Assembly (NCBI RefSeq): GCF_017348835.2
Contig: NZ_CP072315.1
Reading direction: 5' to 3' (one strand)
Source: Escherichia coli
Lineage (GTDB): Bacteria > Pseudomonadota > Gammaproteobacteria > Enterobacterales > Enterobacteriaceae
Length of the DNA stretch: 64,000 nucleotides
The notes beneath the pieces are model-generated. The model had not been told where the DNA came from. It worked only from the letters and a program-made list of their open reading frames with translations, and searched no databases. Position 1 is the stretch's first letter, and every line of letters starts with the position of its first letter. Shown here one piece after another: positions 19,429 to 40,891 of the stretch. Position numbers and translations under genes: made by a program.

Positions 19429-20244
19429 TTAACGAATTCTTGCGGTTTCTTTTAGCGCCGCCAATACCGCCAGCCCGTCGCGCAAGGGGCGCGGCTCGTG
19501 TGTGCGGATGAAGTCAGCTCCACCTGCGGCGGCGGCAAGCTCTGCAGCGAGTGTCGCGGCCCCGACATCCCCCGGACCACGGCCTGTGAGCGCGCGCAGA
19601 AAGGATTTGCGCGAAACAGACAGAAGCACCGGCAAATCGAAGCGCAGCCGCAATTCATCGAACCGCGCCAGCACCGAGAGCGAGGTTTCGGGAGCAGCCC
19701 CCAGAAAAAACCCCATGCCGGGATCAAGGACAAGGCGGTTGCGTTTGATACCGGCACCCGTCAGCGCCGCGATGCGCGCGTCAAAGAACGCCGCAATGTG
19801 ATCCATGATGTCGCCAGCGGGTGCCTCGCGCCGATCTGCCTGCCCGTCTTGCACCGAATGCATAACGACGAGTTTGGCAGATGATTTCGCCAATTGCGGA
19901 TAGAACGCAGCGTCTGGAAAACCGCGAATATCATTGAGATAGGCCACACCACGCGACAAGGCATAGGCTTGCGTCGCGGGTTGATAACTGTCGAGCGAGA
20001 CGGGAATGCCATCTGCCTTGAGCGCGTCCAGCACCGGCGCGATACGCTCGATTTCTGTGTCGGACGAAACAGGCGCGGCGTCGGGGTTGCTGGATGCCGG
20101 ACCGAGGTCGATCACATCTGCCCCCTCGGCCATCAACTTACGCGCCTGCGCAATGGCTGCGTCTGGCGCCAGATACCGGCCTCCATCGGAGAAACTGTCC
20201 GAGGTTATGTTGACGATGCCGAAAATGATGAGCGATTTATTCAT
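19429..20244 (-). CDS. sul2: sulfonamide-resistant dihydropteroate synthase Sul2
   Basis: 271-aa protein MNKSLIIFGIVNITSDSFSDGGRYLAPDAAIAQARKLMAEGADVIDLGPASSNPDAAPV... Confidence 0.95.
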   Translation of the reverse strand: MNKSLIIFGIVNITSDSFSDGGRYLAPDAAIAQARKLMAEGADVIDLGPASSNPDAAPVSSDTEIERIAPVLDALKADGIPVSLDSYQPATQAYALSRGVAYLNDIRGFPDAAFYPQLAKSSAKLVVMHSVQDGQADRREAPAGDIMDHIAAFFDARIAALTGAGIKRNRLVLDPGMGFFLGAAPETSLSVLARFDELRLRFDLPVLLSVSRKSFLRALTGRGPGDVGAATLAAELAAAAGGADFIRTHEPRPLRDGLAVLAALKETARIR

Positions 20245-20551
20245 GGGGGCTTCTATAATAATAATAATCGAGCATGAGTCTCATACGGATGCTCGGGTCG
20301 AAAGGGAATCCCCAGGCGAGTAACCTGTTTGCGGTGATCCATTAGCTGCAGGAGCAGAATAGCATACATCTGGAAGCAAAGCCAGGAAAGCGGCCTATGG
20401 AGCTGTGCGGCAGCGCTCAGTAGGCAATTTTTCAAAATATTGTTAAGCCTTTTCTGAGCATGGTATTTTTCATGGTATTACCAATTAGCAGGAAAATAAG
20501 CCATTGAATATAAAAGATAAAAATGTCTTGTTTACAATAGAGTGGGGGGGG

Positions 20552-21403
20552 TCAGCCTGCCGCCTTGGGCCGGGTGATGTCGTACTTGCCCGCCGCGAAC
20601 TCGGTTACCGTCCAGCCCAGCGCGACCAGCTCCGGCAACGCCTCGCGCACCCGCTGGCGGCGCTTGCGCATGGTCGAACCACTGGCCTCTGACGGCCAGA
20701 CATAGCCGCACAAGGTATCTATGGAAGCCTTGCCGGTTTTGCCGGGGTCGATCCAGCCACACAGCCGCTGGTGCAGCAGGCGGGCGGTTTCGCTGTCCAG
20801 CGCCCGCACCTCGTCCATGCTGATGCGCACATGCTGGCCGCCACCCATGACGGCCTGCGCGATCAAGGGGTTCAGGGCCACGTACAGGCGCCCGTCCGCC
20901 TCGTCGCTGGCGTACTCCGACAGCAGCCGAAACCCCTGCCGCTTGCGGCCATTCTGGGCGATGATGGATACCTTCCAAAGGCGCTCGATGCAGTCCTGTA
21001 TGTGCTTGAGCGCCCCACCACTATCGACCTCTGCCCCGATTTCCTTTGCCAGCGCCCGATAGCTACCTTTGACCACCATGGCATCAGCGGTGACGGCCTC
21101 CCACTTGGGTTCCAGGAACAGCCGGAGCTGCCGTCCGCCTTCGGTCTTGGGTTCCGGGCCAAGCACTAGGCCATTAGGCCCAGCCATGGCCACCAGCCCT
21201 TGCAGGATGCGCAGATCATCAGCGCCCAGCGGCTCCGGGCCGCTGAACTCGATCCGCTTGCCGTCGCCGTAGTCATACGTCACGTCCAGCTTGCTGCGCT
21301 TGCGCTCGCCCCGCTTGAGGGCACGGAACAGGCCGGGGGCCAGACAGTGCGCCGGGTCGTGCCGGACGTGGCTGAGGCTGTGCTTGTTCTTAGGCTTCAC
21401 CAC
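20552..21403 (-). CDS. repC: RSF1010/IncQ-type replication initiator RepC
   Basis: VKPKNKHSLSHVRHDPAHCLAPGLFRALKRGERKRSKLDVTYDYGDGKRIEFSG... with a GTG start inferred; the supplied ORF extends further upstream. Confidence 0.85.
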   Translation of the reverse strand: MVKPKNKHSLSHVRHDPAHCLAPGLFRALKRGERKRSKLDVTYDYGDGKRIEFSGPEPLGADDLRILQGLVAMAGPNGLVLGPEPKTEGGRQLRLFLEPKWEAVTADAMVVKGSYRALAKEIGAEVDSGGALKHIQDCIERLWKVSIIAQNGRKRQGFRLLSEYASDEADGRLYVALNPLIAQAVMGGGQHVRISMDEVRALDSETARLLHQRLCGWIDPGKTGKASIDTLCGYVWPSEASGSTMRKRRQRVREALPELVALGWTVTEFAAGKYDITRPKAAG

Positions 21404-22106
21404 GGGGCACCCCCTTGCTCTTGCGCTGCCTCTCCAGCACGGCGGGCTTGAGCACCCCGCCGTCATGCCGCCTGAACCACCGATCAGCGAACGGTGCGCC
21501 ATAGTTGGCCTTGCTCACACCGAAGCGGACGAAGAACCGGCGCTGGTCGTCGTCCACACCCCATTCCTCGGCCTCGGCGCTGGTCATGCTCGACAGGTAG
21601 GACTGCCAGCGGATGTTATCGACCAGTACCGAGCTGCCCCGGCTGGCCTGCTGCTGGTCGCCTGCGCCCATCATGGCCGCGCCCTTGCTGGCATGGTGCA
21701 GGAACACGATAGAGCACCCGGTATCGGCGGCGATGGCCTCCATGCGACCGATGACCTGGGCCATGGGGCCGCTGGCGTTTTCTTCCTCGATGTGGAACCG
21801 GCGCAGCGTGTCCAGCACCATCAGGCGGCGGCCCTCGGCGGCGCGCTTGAGGCCGTCGAACCACTCCGGGGCCATGATGTTGGGCAGGCTGCCGATCAGC
21901 GGCTGGATCAGCAGGCCGTCAGCCACGGCTTGCCGTTCCTCGGCGCTGAGGTGCGCCCCAAGGGCGTGCAGGCGGTGATGAATGGCGGTGGGCGGGTCTT
22001 CGGCGGGCAGGTAGATCACCGGGCCGGTGGGCAGTTCGCCCACCTCCAGCAGATCCGGCCCGCCTGCAATCTGTGCGGCCAGTTGCAGGGCCAGCATGGA
22101 TTTACC
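21390..22106 (-). pseudogene. repA: RSF1010-type helicase gene repA, 5'-truncated by IS26
   Basis: Frame ...MLALQLAAQIAGGPDLLEVGELPTGPVIYLPAEDPPTAIHHRLHALGAHL... begins at the IS26 boundary inside the Walker A region; about the first 40 codons are missing. Confidence 0.8.
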
Positions 22107-22926
22107 GGCACTGTTGCAAAGTTAGCGATGAGGCAGCCTTTTGTCTTATTCAAAGGCCTTACATTTCAAAAACTCTGCTTACCAGGCGCATTTCGCCCAG
22201 GGGATCACCATAATAAAATGCTGAGGCCTGGCCTTTGCGTAGTGCACGCATCACCTCAATACCTTTGATGGTGGCGTAAGCCGTCTTCATGGATTTAAAT
22301 CCCAGCGTGGCGCCGATTATCCGTTTCAGTTTGCCATGATCGCATTCAATCACGTTGTTCCGGTACTTAATCTGTCGGTGTTCAACGTCAGACGGGCACC
22401 GGCCTTCGCGTTTGAGCAGAGCAAGCGCGCGACCATAGGCGGGCGCTTTATCCGTGTTGATGAATCGCGGGATCTGCCACTTCTTCACGTTGTTGAGGAT
22501 TTTACCCAGAAACCGGTATGCAGCTTTGCTGTTACGACGGGAGGAGAGATAAAAATCGACAGTGCGGCCCCGGCTGTCGACGGCCCGGTACAGATACGCC
22601 CAGCGGCCATTGACCTTCACGTAGGTTTCATCCATGTGCCACGGGCAAAGATCGGAAGGGTTACGCCAGTACCAGCGCAGCCGTTTTTCCATTTCAGGCG
22701 CATAACGCTGAACCCAGCGGTAAATCGTGGAGTGATCGACATTCACTCCGCGTTCAGCCAGCATCTCCTGCAGCTCACGGTAACTGATGCCGTATTTGCA
22801 GTACCAGCGTACGGCCCACAGAATGATGTCACGCTGAAAATGCCGGCCTTTGAATGGGTTCATGTGCAGCTCCATCAGCAAAAGGGGATGATAAGTTTAT
22901 CACCACCGACTATTTGCAACAGTGCC
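22107..22926 (-). mobile_element. tnp26: IS26 copy 3, standard Tnp26
   Basis: 820 bp with both inverted repeats; tnp26 about 22159-22863 on the minus strand; Gly184. Confidence 0.95.
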
Positions 22927-22984
22927 GCTCCATCAGCAAAAGGGGATGATAAGTTTATCACCACCGACTATTTGCAACAGTGCC
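22927..22984 (-). repeat. 58-bp fragment of the IS26 left end, tandem to IS26 copy 3
   Basis: gctccatcagcaaaaggggatgataagtttatcaccaccgactatttgcaacagtgcc repeats the last 58 bp of the adjacent element. Confidence 0.85.
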
Positions 22985-27340: not shown

Positions 27341-28160
27341 GGCACTGTTGCAAAGTTAGCGATGAGGCAGCCTTTTGTCTTATTCAAAGGCCTTACATTT
27401 CAAAAACTCTGCTTACCAGGCGCATTTCGCCCAGGGGATCACCATAATAAAATGCTGAGGCCTGGCCTTTGCGTAGTGCACGCATCACCTCAATACCTTT
27501 GATGGTGGCGTAAGCCGTCTTCATGGATTTAAATCCCAGCGTGGCGCCGATTATCCGTTTCAGTTTGCCATGATCGCATTCAATCACGTTGTTCCGGTAC
27601 TTAATCTGTCGGTGTTCAACGTCAGACGGGCACCGGCCTTCGCGTTTGAGCAGAGCAAGCGCGCGACCATAGGCGGGCGCTTTATCCGTGTTGATGAATC
27701 GCGGGATCTGCCACTTCTTCACGTTGTTGAGGATTTTACCCAGAAACCGGTATGCAGCTTTGCTGTTACGACGGGAGGAGAGATAAAAATCGACAGTGCG
27801 GCCCCGGCTGTCGACGGCCCGGTACAGATACGCCCAGCGGCCATTGACCTTCACGTAGGTTTCATCCATGTGCCACGGGCAAAGATCGGAAGGGTTACGC
27901 CAGTACCAGCGCAGCCGTTTTTCCATTTCAGGCGCATAACGCTGAACCCAGCGGTAAATCGTGGAGTGATCGACATTCACTCCGCGTTCAGCCAGCATCT
28001 CCTGCAGCTCACGGTAACTGATGCCGTATTTGCAGTACCAGCGTACGGCCCACAGAATGATGTCACGCTGAAAATGCCGGCCTTTGAATGGGTTCATGTG
28101 CAGCTCCATCAGCAAAAGGGGATGATAAGTTTATCACCACCGACTATTTGCAACAGTGCC
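27341..28160 (-). mobile_element. tnp26: IS26 copy 4, standard Tnp26
   Basis: 820 bp with both inverted repeats; tnp26 about 27393-28097 on the minus strand; Gly184. Confidence 0.95.
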
Positions 28161-32695: not shown

Positions 32696-33515
32696 GGCAC
32701 TGTTGCAAAGTTAGCGATGAGGCAGCCTTTTGTCTTATTCAAAGGCCTTACATTTCAAAAACTCTGCTTACCAGGCGCATTTCGCCCAGGGGATCACCAT
32801 AATAAAATGCTGAGGCCTGGCCTTTGCGTAGTGCACGCATCACCTCAATACCTTTGATGGTGGCGTAAGCCGTCTTCATGGATTTAAATCCCAGCGTGGC
32901 GTTGATTATCCGTTTCAGTTTGCCATGATCGCATTCAATCACGTTGTTCCGGTACTTAATCTGTCGGTGTTCAACGTCAGACGGGCACCGGCCTTCGCGT
33001 TTGAGCAGAGCAAGCGCGCGACCATAGGCGGGCGCTTTATCCGTGTTGATGAATCGTGGGATCTGCCACTTCTTCACGTTGTTGAGGATTTTACCCAGAA
33101 ACCGGTATGCAGCTTTGCTGTTACGACGGGAGGAGAGATAAAAATCGACAGTGCGGCCCCGGCTGTCGACGGCCCGGTACAGATACGCCCAGCGGCCATT
33201 GACCTTCACGTAGGTTTCATCCATGTGCCACGGGCAAAGATCGGAAGGGTTACGCCAGTACCAGCGCAGCCGTTTTTCCATTTCAGGCGCATAACGCTGA
33301 ACCCAGCGGTAAATCGTGGAGTGATCGACATTCACTCCGCGTTCAGCCAGCATCTCCTGCAGCTCACGGTAACTGATGCCGTATTTGCAGTACCAGCGTA
33401 CGGCCCACAGAATGATGTCACGCTGAAAATGCCGGCCTTTGAATGGGTTCATGTGCAGCTCCATCAGCAAAAGGGGATGATAAGTTTATCACCACCGACT
33501 ATTTGCAACAGTGCC
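32696..33515 (-). mobile_element. tnp26: IS26 copy 5, Tnp26 G184N variant
   Basis: 820 bp with both inverted repeats; tnp26 about 32748-33452 on the minus strand; reads KRIINATLGF. Confidence 0.95.
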
Positions 33516-35261: not shown

Positions 35262-36682
<1,421 letters not shown>

Positions 36683-37502
36683 GGCACTGTTGCAAAGTTA
36701 GCGATGAGGCAGCCTTTTGTCTTATTCAAAGGCCTTACATTTCAAAAACTCTGCTTACCAGGCGCATTTCGCCCAGGGGATCACCATAATAAAATGCTGA
36801 GGCCTGGCCTTTGCGTAGTGCACGCATCACCTCAATACCTTTGATGGTGGCGTAAGCCGTCTTCATGGATTTAAATCCCAGCGTGGCGTTGATTATCCGT
36901 TTCAGTTTGCCATGATCGCATTCAATCACGTTGTTCCGGTACTTAATCTGTCGGTGTTCAACGTCAGACGGGCACCGGCCTTCGCGTTTGAGCAGAGCAA
37001 GCGCGCGACCATAGGCGGGCGCTTTATCCGTGTTGATGAATCGTGGGATCTGCCACTTCTTCACGTTGTTGAGGATTTTACCCAGAAACCGGTATGCAGC
37101 TTTGCTGTTACGACGGGAGGAGAGATAAAAATCGACAGTGCGGCCCCGGCTGTCGACGGCCCGGTACAGATACGCCCAGCGGCCATTGACCTTCACGTAG
37201 GTTTCATCCATGTGCCACGGGCAAAGATCGGAAGGGTTACGCCAGTACCAGCGCAGCCGTTTTTCCATTTCAGGCGCATAACGCTGAACCCAGCGGTAAA
37301 TCGTGGAGTGATCGACATTCACTCCGCGTTCAGCCAGCATCTCCTGCAGCTCACGGTAACTGATGCCGTATTTGCAGTACCAGCGTACGGCCCACAGAAT
37401 GATGTCACGCTGAAAATGCCGGCCTTTGAATGGGTTCATGTGCAGCTCCATCAGCAAAAGGGGATGATAAGTTTATCACCACCGACTATTTGCAACAGTG
37501 CC
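36683..37502 (-). mobile_element. tnp26: IS26 copy 6, Tnp26 G184N variant; right-hand boundary of the resistance mosaic
   Basis: 820 bp with both inverted repeats; tnp26 about 36735-37439 on the minus strand; reads KRIINATLGF. Confidence 0.95.
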
Positions 37503-37646
37503 ACGCAAAGACGTAATGAGCAGTGTATCCCCTGCCACAATACCCTCTTCAGGGATGCTGTCAGTGGACGTCCAGTACTGACCCGCCAGCAAAGAATGAA
37601 ATCGCTCTAAACGGTCAATGCTATTTTTGCTGACCAGGTCACCCAT
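37503..37646 (-). pseudogene. 5' end (48 codons) of an unknown backbone gene, truncated by IS26
   Basis: ATG at 37646 preceded by AAGGA; frame MGDLVSKNSIDRLERFHSLLAGQYWTSTDSIPEEGIVAGDTLLITSLR runs into the IS26 repeat. Confidence 0.4.
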
Positions 37647-37844
37647 ATACTTTTCCTTCCAGATTCGTGTGTTAGGTGAATCATACCAGATTGCCCTTGC
37701 CGTCTAATAACGCAGAAAACTGTGAATCCAAAATTCCTTAAATTCAAACCTGTCCAATATAAAAGATGGCTCTTTTTCTTATCCAGTGTTAAGCGATAAT
37801 GCTCAATTTTATTTCATTATTGTCAGAATCAAAATAATCTGAAA

Positions 37845-37872
37845 ATAAAAAAGGCTTCAGAATTGAAGCCTC
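37845..37872 (-). terminator. candidate rho-independent terminator
   Basis: Hairpin AGGCTTCA-GAAT-TGAAGCCT followed on the minus strand by a T-run, just 3' of the 37897-38253 gene. Confidence 0.4.
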
Positions 37873-37896
37873 TATATTATACAACGTGAATGTATT

Positions 37897-38253
37897 TTAT
37901 TTATCTTTCACCGGGTTCATTTCCCAGTATCTTTCACGTACGTTTTCTTGGCAATGGTCCGCTCGCTCCGGCGTGTCCCTTTTACGAGTAGCAAATGCTT
38001 CAATTACGGCATTCAAGTCTTTTTCTTTGATTTTAGATCCAACAGGCAAGTTTTCTTCAAACTCAGTCCTTACCAGTTCTTTCGTTTTTTTATAATCGGT
38101 TTCACTTTGGATTTCAGGTTTTAAACAAATATCGGCAACCATCACATCTGATTTGCCCGGGATCGGTTTTTTCCCGTTTTCAGATGCAAGGACCGCAGAG
38201 GAGGTAAAGGCGACAGACAGAGTTGCACATAACAGAAGGTATTTTAATTTCAT
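37897..38253 (-). CDS. small secreted protein of unknown function (N-terminal signal peptide)
   Basis: 118-aa ORF with N-terminus MKLKYLLLCATLSVAFTSSAVLA. Confidence 0.5.
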   Translation of the reverse strand: MKLKYLLLCATLSVAFTSSAVLASENGKKPIPGKSDVMVADICLKPEIQSETDYKKTKELVRTEFEENLPVGSKIKEKDLNAVIEAFATRKRDTPERADHCQENVRERYWEMNPVKDK

Positions 38254-38402
38254 GACTCACTCCATGATTATCAATGATGGTTGCTCAGACACATCATTTA
38301 TACCATGCCTGTCACCGAATACGAGATCCCCATATTTTGGCTTTAAATATTATCCAATAGGGTTTCATACACCTGGCTTCTGAAAGCAAGGTTCAAGGAG
38401 CT

Positions 38403-39020
38403 TCAGGGGGAAATCAGATTGTTGTCGACCCAGTACTTGTGCAAACCTACCACCCAATTCCTGGAAATGGACGAAAGTTCATGCGCCAGTTCACGACAGC
38501 ATTCAGGCGTAAAAATACGTATGGGTCCTGAAGTACCGATATCAACAGACATGATAAACTCCAGAATGTTGCCATGGCATAGGTTGTTTCTCAGCCTGAC
38601 AATTTCTGCTTCAGGTGTTCTCCCGGCTGCTACCTTAACCAACATATCCTGCTCGGCTGGAAATGAAAGTAATTCTACCGGCACCCCTTCCTGCTTGGCC
38701 TTTCTCAGTAAGGCATTACTCATTACGGAGATACCCTCCAAGTCCACCAGCTCAGGAGCTGCATGCTGATCGTTAACTGTTGGTTTCAGCATCAGCGACT
38801 TCAACGTAACCATGAGTGATGTTTCAATCCCGTTCAGGAAGCTCGTACAGGCCGGTATCCATAGTTCGTGATGCAACGCCTCGGTTGCTTGTTTAAAGAA
38901 CCAGTCAATCACGGGGACAGTGTGATAATCATAATAGTGATTTATCTCGCTGAATCTTGACATATAAGCATCGTACTCAGCCTGGTCTTCAGGAGATAAA
39001 AAATTTGGTGGGAGGGGCAT
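38403..39020 (-). CDS. hypothetical protein
   Basis: 205-aa ORF; no recognisable motif. Confidence 0.45.
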   Translation of the reverse strand: MPLPPNFLSPEDQAEYDAYMSRFSEINHYYDYHTVPVIDWFFKQATEALHHELWIPACTSFLNGIETSLMVTLKSLMLKPTVNDQHAAPELVDLEGISVMSNALLRKAKQEGVPVELLSFPAEQDMLVKVAAGRTPEAEIVRLRNNLCHGNILEFIMSVDIGTSGPIRIFTPECCRELAHELSSISRNWVVGLHKYWVDNNLISP

Positions 39021-39174
39021 CAGAATCCTTTCATCCTAGCTTGTATACCTTCTTCGTAGGCCAGCTCGCCATTATCGGTAAAAGATGGTTTTTGGTGTTT
39101 GTGACAAAGCTTAATTTTTCGTCAGGCTCGATAGCGTTACCGGAGAGATTTGATCTTTTCTCTGTAACTCGCAA

Positions 39175-39194
39175 TACTGTTTATACATACAGTA
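39175..39194 (+). promoter_or_regulatory. LexA (SOS) box upstream of the umuD-like gene
   Basis: TACTGTTTATACATACAGTA fits the CTGT-n8-ACAG SOS-box pattern, 20 bp before the ATG at 39214. Confidence 0.7.
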
Positions 39195-39213
39195 TGAGAA
39201 TTCGAGTGTAGCT

Positions 39214-39648
39214 ATGTCTGTTATCCTTGAGCACATTAGCAACAAGCCTTACGAAATGGCACCTTTTTTCAGTGATTTACTGAGCTGTGGAGTGATGAGT
39301 CCGTGCGCCGGGCATGAAGATAATGAATTAAATTTGCATGAATATGTAGTCCGTAACCGCCCCTCAACCTTCTTTGTCAGGGCGGCGGGCCTCAGTATGA
39401 TCAATGCCGGTATCAATGATGGCGCTATTCTGGTTGTGGATCGGTCTTTAACGGCACGACACGGCTCTATCGTCGTTGCGCTGGTGGATGGAGAGTTCAC
39501 GGTAAAGATCTTACACACGTATCCTGAGCTGCTTTTGATGCCTTCTAATCCAGCCTATAAGCCGATACGTGTAAATCCCGAATCCCTTGAGATATGGGGC
39601 GTCGTCACCTTTGCACTGAATCAGTTTAGCCATGTACATGCACGTTGA
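39214..39648 (+). CDS. umuD: UmuD/MucA-like translesion-synthesis accessory protein (LexA-like S24 peptidase fold)
   Basis: 144-aa ORF immediately upstream of, and overlapping, a UmuC-like gene; preceded by an SOS box. Confidence 0.75.
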   Translation: MSVILEHISNKPYEMAPFFSDLLSCGVMSPCAGHEDNELNLHEYVVRNRPSTFFVRAAGLSMINAGINDGAILVVDRSLTARHGSIVVALVDGEFTVKILHTYPELLLMPSNPAYKPIRVNPESLEIWGVVTFALNQFSHVHAR

Positions 39649-40891
39649 TATTAACGGGGCCTATGCGGCATTTGAGTGTGCGATGGATCCCAAGCTGGCA
39701 AAAAAGCCGCTCATCATAGCCAGCAATAACGATTCGTCCGTCATTGCAATGAATAAACTGGCTAAAAGCGTTGGTATTAAGCGTGGGACCCCAATTTTTA
39801 AGTGCAGGGATTTGATTCAGCAACACCAGATCGAAGTCCGGAGCTCTAACTTTACTTTGTATGAAGACTACTCAAATCGCTTCCATGAAACGCTGGAAAG
39901 CTTCGCGCCTCAATCGAGTCGATATAGCATAGATGAAAATTTCATGTTATTGAAAAACATGAACAAGATAATAGATTATGAAGATTACGGCCGGTTGATC
40001 AGAAGTACACTTCTTCATAATCTGTCCCTTACCTGTGGTGTGGGGTGTTCAAGCACCAAAACCCTGGCTAAATTATGCACCTATGCGAGCAAACGATGGG
40101 CAGCTACAGGCGGGGTTGTAGTTTTGACTGATCAGGCCAGGATCAGGAAGCTCCTGGGCCTTATCAGTACCAGAGAAATATGGGGTATTGGTCAAAAGAT
40201 CAGTGAACGCCTGTCGGCTTTCGGGATCATCACTGCCGGTGATTTTTATAATAGCGACGTTCGCTTTTTACGTAAAAGCTTTGGCGTTGAAATCGAGCGT
40301 ACCTGGCGGGAACTGCATGGCGAACCATGTTTCCGGCTGCATGAATCCCCTCCTGTCCGGCAACAGATTATCGTTTCCAGAAGTTTTGGTCAGCGCCTTA
40401 ATGAGATAGGCAAGCTACATGAGGCAGTTTCATTTTTTACCGCCCGGGCGGCAGAGCAGCTGCGCAAGGATGGCTCGTGGACCCGTCAAATCACAGTCTT
40501 CATTCAGAGCAGCAATTATGCGCAAGGTGAAAACCGCTACAGCAATTGTGGTATCGAGCCGCTTACCGCTACACAGGACACCCGCGATCTGGTTGATGCA
40601 GCCATGACCATCCTGAACCGCATTTACAAACCCGGGATAGCGTATGCGAAAGCTGGGGTAATGCTCTCCGCTATGACTGACGGCACAGAGCAACTCAGCC
40701 TGTTTGATGAGCGCCCGGCCAGGCCTGGCAGTCAGGCACTGATGAAAGTTATGGACCGGTTCAATAAAGAAAAGCGCGGAGCTCTGTTTTTGCTGGGGGA
40801 AGGCATTCAACAGGATTTTCGTATGAAACAGGCCATGCTATCACCGAGATATACGACCCGCTGGGATGAATTACTCGTTGTAAAAGCGTAG
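39632..40891 (+). CDS. umuC: UmuC/MucB-like Y-family error-prone DNA polymerase
   Basis: 419-aa ORF; N-terminus MHVDINGAYAAFECAMDPKLAKKPLIIASNNDSSVIAMNKLAK parallels the UmuC start MFALCDVNAFYASCE...VVVLSNNDGCVIA. Confidence 0.8.
   Translation: MYMHVDINGAYAAFECAMDPKLAKKPLIIASNNDSSVIAMNKLAKSVGIKRGTPIFKCRDLIQQHQIEVRSSNFTLYEDYSNRFHETLESFAPQSSRYSIDENFMLLKNMNKIIDYEDYGRLIRSTLLHNLSLTCGVGCSSTKTLAKLCTYASKRWAATGGVVVLTDQARIRKLLGLISTREIWGIGQKISERLSAFGIITAGDFYNSDVRFLRKSFGVEIERTWRELHGEPCFRLHESPPVRQQIIVSRSFGQRLNEIGKLHEAVSFFTARAAEQLRKDGSWTRQITVFIQSSNYAQGENRYSNCGIEPLTATQDTRDLVDAAMTILNRIYKPGIAYAKAGVMLSAMTDGTEQLSLFDERPARPGSQALMKVMDRFNKEKRGALFLLGEGIQQDFRMKQAMLSPRYTTRWDELLVVKA

Follow-up and report, generated by a model that had tools for sequence, protein, structure and literature searches.

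The junction at positions 37502/37503 of the window (the whole stretch of 64,000 nucleotides analyzed here) is very probably a secondary boundary of the resistance region, made by IS26 through an adjacent deletion, and not the point at which that region entered the plasmid. The sequence-only reading had taken the junction as the entry point of a mosaic of roughly 37.5 kb. This is contradicted by a 5-bp CTTAA duplication, with its corresponding empty site, that lies 606 bp deeper in the gene, and by the lack of an IS26 duplication at the junction, and the mosaic is in fact larger, spanning 54.3 kb in the closest relative.

Right-hand boundary of the resistance region

In the window sequence, the sixth copy of IS26 ends at position 37502 and IncHI2 backbone runs from 37503. 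Over its first 1.7 kb (37503-39200), this backbone shows 100% identity to several hundred large conjugative plasmids with IncHI2A/MOBH typing, and the order of backbone genes to the right of the junction (two hypothetical genes, umuD, umuC, and dsbA) matches that of typed IncHI2 relatives, with the IncHI2 assignment resting on the PLSDB typing records of these relatives. This identity and the continuation of the interrupted reading frame in relatives confirmed that the right-hand mosaic/backbone boundary interrupts a backbone gene, of which a stump of 48 codons remains; the left junction was correctly placed beyond the window. The features at and around the boundary are as follows.

35262..36682, minus strand: mosaic segment on the inner side of IS26 copy 6, with blaCTX-M-55 (36137 to 35262) preceded by an IS26-cut ISEcp1 transposase remnant
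36683..37502, minus strand: IS26 copy 6, complete (820 bp), bounded by repeats at 36683-36696 and 37489-37502; matches copies 1 and 5 at 820/820 positions
37439 to 36735, minus strand: tnp26 of IS26 copy 6; passes the curated cut-off for IS6 family transposases (E=3.6e-83); residue 184 is N (Tnp26 G184N)
37503..37510, no strand: abutting octamer ACGCAAAG; single occurrence, no target-site duplication
37503..37646, minus strand: 5' stump of the backbone ORF, 48 codons, running from 37646 to 37503; the ORF has 388 aa in the relative with the empty site and 1111 aa in IncHI2 plasmids of the R478 type
37476..37646, minus strand: chimeric 56-aa ORF, 48 backbone codons followed by 8 codons and a stop from the IS26 end; RefSeq hypothetical protein WP_152919720.1
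37647..37896, minus strand: intact intergenic region upstream of the stump, containing promoter-like sites (37785-37756, 37845-37816) and a hairpin (37873-37850)
37897-38253 (118 aa) and 38403-39020 (205 aa), minus strand: two backbone hypothetical genes, syntenic in all IncHI2 relatives
39214..40891, plus strand: umuD/umuC-like translesion polymerase genes (UmuD family, E=4.4e-38), the synteny anchor of the IncHI2 backbone

IS26 carries a single transposase gene, tnp26, encoding a DDE transposase of 234 aa. The window contains 13 occurrences of the 14-bp terminal repeat of IS26, GGCACTGTTGCAAA, where 0 would be expected, and these repeats define six complete copies of 820 bp, which differ mutually by at most 3 nt, and one end fragment of 58 bp. 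Copy 6 has the length of 820 bp, the 14-bp terminal inverted repeats, and the tnp26 gene of IS26, and copies 3-6 all lie on the minus strand. Two types of the element are present within the one mosaic: the 3-nt G184N variant at 4225-5044, 32696-33515, and 36683-37502, and the canonical type at 8187-9006, 22107-22926, and 27341-28160. The 58-bp duplicate of an IS26 end (22927-22984) directly follows a complete copy and accounts for the 13th match to the terminal repeat.

The sequence flanking copy 6 is GTTTTCAG on the left and ACGCAAAG on the right, and the element is thus without an 8-bp target-site duplication. Such a missing duplication is expected of a deletion or recombination product and therefore does not argue against the identity of the element as IS26. 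Neither ACGCAAAG nor its complement, CTTTGCGT, was found flanking another IS26 copy in the window, as would be the signature of an inversion; other occurrences lay inside IS26 or were unrelated. With regard to base composition, a switch from GC-rich to AT-rich sequence at the junction had been noted, and G+C content does fall from 56.2% for positions 1-37502 to 43.8% for positions 37503-64000. The step is nevertheless not sharp at the junction itself, given that the 485 bp to the left of IS26 copy 6, which contain the ISEcp1 remnant, have a G+C content of 33% and the stump one of 50%.

In the segment bordering copy 6 on its inner side, the match to the CTX-M family was strong (E=4.7e-189), with the name CTX-M-55 being taken from an identical relative, and the match of the ISEcp1 remnant to the IS1380 family transposase covered only positions 335-419 of the 419 positions of the model, corresponding to the COOH-terminus. 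The stump ORF, tnp26, and blaCTX-M-55 are co-oriented, all on the minus strand. On the backbone side, the promoter-like sites in the intergenic region at 37647..37896 are weak, and both these sites and the terminator-like hairpin, which would belong to the upstream gene, are consensus matches only; transcription from the region upstream of the stump could read into tnp26, with the promoter-like matches there being weak. Searches of Pfam, NCBIfam, and PADLOC with the 118-aa and 205-aa hypothetical proteins yielded no match. Additional insertions of IS5 or IS1 were present in the stretch corresponding to 37503-39200 in the relatives NZ_CP119735.1, NZ_CP119741.1, and NZ_CP034390.1.

The disrupted gene

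In related plasmids, the reading frame of the stump extends over 266, 388, or 1111 aa, and the gene has therefore truly been cut at the junction instead of ending there naturally. We sought the intact gene in related plasmids lacking the insertion and recovered it as an ORF of 388 aa in p28945-2 and as an ORF of 1111 aa in R478-like plasmids. The 1111-aa ORF (WP_000502666.1; positions 3384-6719 of locus L005, NZ_CP083854.1) belongs to IncHI2 plasmids that are approximately 97.5% identical to the window at this locus, and plasmids carrying the IS26 junction gave a tblastn match of 97.9% to residues 1-48 of the protein. The 388-aa ORF of p28945-2 (CP048303.1; positions 5580-6746 of locus L006) represents the lineage of the window, with an identity of 99.9% and no insertion. 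In this ORF, residues 1-239 of the 1111-aa protein are followed in the same frame by residues 15-163 of a 163-aa ORF that is situated 3.8 kb downstream in R478-like plasmids, with a CTT microhomology at the join; the 388-aa ORF is thus a fusion of two unrelated ORFs, and its COOH-terminal portion resembles a small membrane protein. The 266-aa version, found for example in pQnrB4_020042, comprises codons 1-249 of the 388-aa ORF and then continues into the end of a transposon.

Full-length relatives of approximately 1100-1190 aa, with identities of 36-58%, occur across Proteobacteria and in 1168 PLSDB records, and the 48 residues of the stump form the conserved NH2-terminus of this family of approximately 1100 aa. 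Given that full-length homologues are widespread, the 1111-aa form is ancestral and the 388-aa form a deletion derivative. The family is found on large conjugative plasmids among the Entero-, Beta-, and Alphaproteobacteria (homologues P0001-P0120), and the neighbors of the distant homologues are generic plasmid accessory genes, including those for a DNA methyltransferase, ArdC, H-NS, KfrA, and toxin-antitoxin systems, with no conserved operon partner being seen in these neighborhoods. Searches of Pfam and NCBIfam and a sequence search of the PDB gave no match for the 1111-aa protein, nor did its structure model, which was predicted with confidence, yield a structural neighbor. An identity as KwaB/DUF4868 was not adopted, since the PADLOC match was weak (E=0.003, 14.9 bits, 70 residues) and insufficient. 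No other piece of the disrupted gene was found in the window, where only positions 37503-37720 match the R478-type locus.

The chance that the gene ends naturally at the junction, with the short ORF being a genuine small backbone gene, is close to nil. RefSeq does annotate WP_152919720.1 in many plasmids, but the last eight codons and the stop of this ORF are IS26 sequence, the frame continues to 266, 388, and 1111 aa elsewhere, and the 48 residues constitute the conserved beginning of a much longer protein. The 56-aa ORF annotated as WP_152919720.1 is an artefact, a by-product of annotation and no gene. The disruption of a gene, as originally claimed, thus holds.

Three successive events, namely the 3.8-kb deletion, the Tn1721 insertion, and the IS26 deletion, have affected the gene in the IncHI2 lineage that is sequenced most widely. 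That loss of the protein of approximately 1100 aa was selected, for instance because the protein is costly or limits host range, seems to us quite improbable; if it were true, the locus would be a tolerated or favored landing pad and not a neutral one.

Original insertion site

The point at which the resistance region entered the gene is marked in relatives by terminal inverted repeats of the Tn1721 type, 38 bp in length (GGGGAGCCCGCAGAATTCGGAAAAAATCGTACGCTAAG), at both boundaries (left in locus L007, right in locus L002) and by a 5-bp target duplication, CTTAA, for which a matching empty site exists. The three states are as follows, with a slash denoting the junction.

Empty site, p28945-2 (L006): AAAATCTTAAATACC, that is, ...GCCAAAAT CTTAA ATACCTTCCG..., with a single CTTAA
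Left boundary, p2016062-242 (NZ_CP090540.1, L007): ...AAAATCTTAA / GGGGAGCCCGCAGAATTCGG..., that is, GCCAAAAT CTTAA / GGGGAGCCCGCAGAATTCGGAAAAAATCGTACGCTAAG
Right boundary, pQnrB4_020042 (L002): ...GCGGTTCCCC / CTTAAATACC..., that is, CTTAGCGTACGATTTTTTCCGAATTCTGCGGTTCCCC / CTTAA ATACCTTCCG

In NZ_CP090540.1, the left junction is located at 100764/100765 and reads GCCAAAATCTTAA / GGGGAGCCCGCAG. The insertion of the Tn1721-family element lies at codons 248-249 of the 388-aa ORF, 606 bp further into the gene than position 37503. In the relatives, the right repeat is followed inward by orfI of Tn1721, a methyl-accepting chemotaxis-like gene, and the left repeat by a transposase of the TnAs1/Tn1721 family. 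In PLSDB, 619 records contain the left junction, 52 contain the right junction in its original form, and 17 among the matches listed have the complete empty site. The arrangement is typical of a Tn3-family insertion, and in the lineage of the window the resistance region entered as a Tn1721-family (Tn3-family) transposon.

The elements at the boundaries of the relatives share with Tn1721/Tn1722 (Tn3 family; designated "TnAs1 family" in RefSeq) the 38-bp repeats, the 5-bp duplication, orfI, and the TnAs1-family transposase; the window differs in that the repeat has been deleted at its junction. A search of the literature for the CTTAA site in IncHI2 plasmids yielded nothing relevant. The Tn1721/Tn21 insertion described in PMC7355605 was considered as the same site, but it differs, being located in tnsA of a Tn7-like element.

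Formation of the IS26 junction

Three portions of the sequence around the original right junction are absent from the window: the Tn1721 repeat, the right copy of CTTAA, and 606 bp of the ORF (positions 5395-6000 of L002). Backbone identity resumes exactly at ACGCAAAG (37503). Comparison with both L002 and L006 thus reveals an intact IS26 abutting backbone from which a contiguous interval is missing, as expected for an adjacent deletion. Deletion by IS26 through intramolecular replicative transposition has been documented (He et al. 2015, PMC4471558; IS6-family review, PMC7986276). The junction resembles the events described there in having an intact IS26 at the new boundary, no 8-bp duplication, and loss of the intervening DNA relative to a nameable ancestor, as well as in its setting, an enterobacterial plasmid whose resistance region contains several IS26 copies. 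We see no mechanistic difference from those events, with the one at the present junction being deduced from sequence.

The order of events is as follows. At this locus, R478-like IncHI2 plasmids have the 1111-aa ORF. The lineage of the window then lost 3.8 kb, whereby codons 1-239 became linked in frame to codons 15-163 of the downstream 163-aa ORF and the 388-aa ORF arose. A Tn1721-family transposon subsequently inserted into codons 248-249, with duplication of CTTAA, and the resistance region grew inside it. In the window, IS26 now abuts ACGCAAAG after codon 48, and the right inverted repeat, the right CTTAA, and 606 bp of the ORF have disappeared. For this last step, we infer that an IS26 inside the region attacked the nearby backbone intramolecularly by replicative transposition, so that the interval was lost in a single step; the deletion probably happened once and was then inherited by hundreds of plasmids, and the boundary IS26 may since have served as a fixed hinge for exchange of the inner segment, which here is the unit formed by the ISEcp1 remnant and blaCTX-M-55. 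The sequences compared directly show the ancestral states and duplications, the loss of 606 bp, the absence of a duplication around IS26, and the broad occurrence of the junction.

The same final sequence could also have arisen in two steps, with IS26 first inserting at ACGCAAAG with an 8-bp duplication and the interval then being removed by recombination with a directly oriented IS26, through either homologous recombination or the conservative reaction of Tnp26. IS26 copies that share an orientation are numerous in the mosaic (3-6 all lie on the minus strand), recombination between IS26 copies is common (PMC4676283), and exchange at the boundary IS26 has clearly occurred, as is apparent from comparison of pSTM6-275 with the window. 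A plasmid with the simple insertion should, however, have IS26 abutting the left side of the octamer, and a synthetic 63-nt probe for this intermediate (CAACGTAACGCAAAG / GGCACTGTTGCAAA) gave no match in the 368 records of PLSDB (72,556 plasmids) in which the sequence to the left of the octamer is retained. The one-step route also requires fewer events, and we regard the two-step route as unlikely.

Entry of the whole mosaic into the intact gene as an IS26-bounded composite, with the junction as the original insertion point, would account for IS26 lying directly against a truncated backbone ORF, and IS26-bounded units do move as composites. Such an entry is nonetheless highly improbable: there is no 8-bp duplication; the other boundary, in relatives with an identical right junction, is a Tn1721 inverted repeat and not IS26; the CTTAA duplication and the empty site place entry 606 bp away; and those 606 bp of backbone are missing, not displaced, with no other piece of the gene being present in the window. 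Adjacent deletion by IS26 from within a region that had entered as a Tn1721-family transposon thus remains our preferred explanation.

Relation to described IncHI2 resistance regions

The multiresistance region of IncHI2/ST3 plasmids has previously been mapped by PCR of "HP1-IS26" and "Tn1721-HP2" junctions, where HP denotes a backbone hypothetical protein (PMC6288184). The plasmids pHN6DS2, pHNSHP45-2, and pMCR_WCHEC1613 of that study share with the present region an IS26-HP junction on one side and a Tn1721-HP junction on the other, whereas the inner content differs, with the present region carrying blaCTX-M-55, floR, tet(A), mph(A), and other genes. We found that pMCR_WCHEC1613 (CP019214) has the same Tn1721 left junction, and the "HP1-IS26" junction is probably nucleotide-identical to that at 37502/37503. 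The kind of event is thus well known, the exact junction is already contained in hundreds of public sequences, and the architecture of the region has already been recognized. Edges of IS26 deletions are routine in enterobacterial resistance plasmids, and the finding matters little in itself. It does indicate that target duplications and empty sites need to be checked before an IS26 at a boundary is taken as the entry point of a resistance region.

Distribution of the junction and exchange of the interior

A 70-nt probe across the junction of IS26 with ACGCAAAG detected this junction in 318 PLSDB records, and the exact 56-aa chimeric ORF was present on at least 1000 contigs in a large protein collection. 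The mosaics of the 318 plasmids differ on the inner side of IS26, and the Tn1721 left junction is retained in plasmids with the IS26 junction, such as pSTM6-275 and p2016062-242. In the latter, the closest relative, the region extends from 100765 to 155026 (54.3 kb), with the stump ORF at 155000-155170. From such near-identical relatives, the left boundary of the plasmid from which the window is derived is likely also the Tn1721 junction.

The right flank of the junction recurs in pSTM6-275, where it borders a canonical IS26 and a sul1 fragment; in the window, its neighbors are the G184N type of IS26 and the ISEcp1 remnant with blaCTX-M-55. The same flank with a different interior indicates that the boundary has been fixed and the interior exchanged. 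Given that the junction is common to 318 plasmids and at least 1000 contigs, it is best regarded as an inherited lineage marker, the edge of a later IS26 deletion. A single origin of the 318 copies appears probable on the basis of the identity of the junction; alternatively, the junction may have spread among IncHI2 plasmids by recombination. Together with the 56-aa chimeric ORF, the IS26/ACGCAAAG junction provides a precise marker of one IncHI2 sub-lineage.

The contigs with WP_152919720.1 include one of 5.3 Mb, which suggests the existence of chromosomally integrated copies. The window itself contains a sole Tn1721-type repeat, at 6396-6433 (the orfI end), which lies in another context, with the flank ...CCTTAAAAC / GGGG; it is followed by a chemotaxis-like orfI (6585-8186) that is cut by IS26 at 8187. 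The segment at 5045-22984 is inverted in NZ_CP090546.1 relative to the window.
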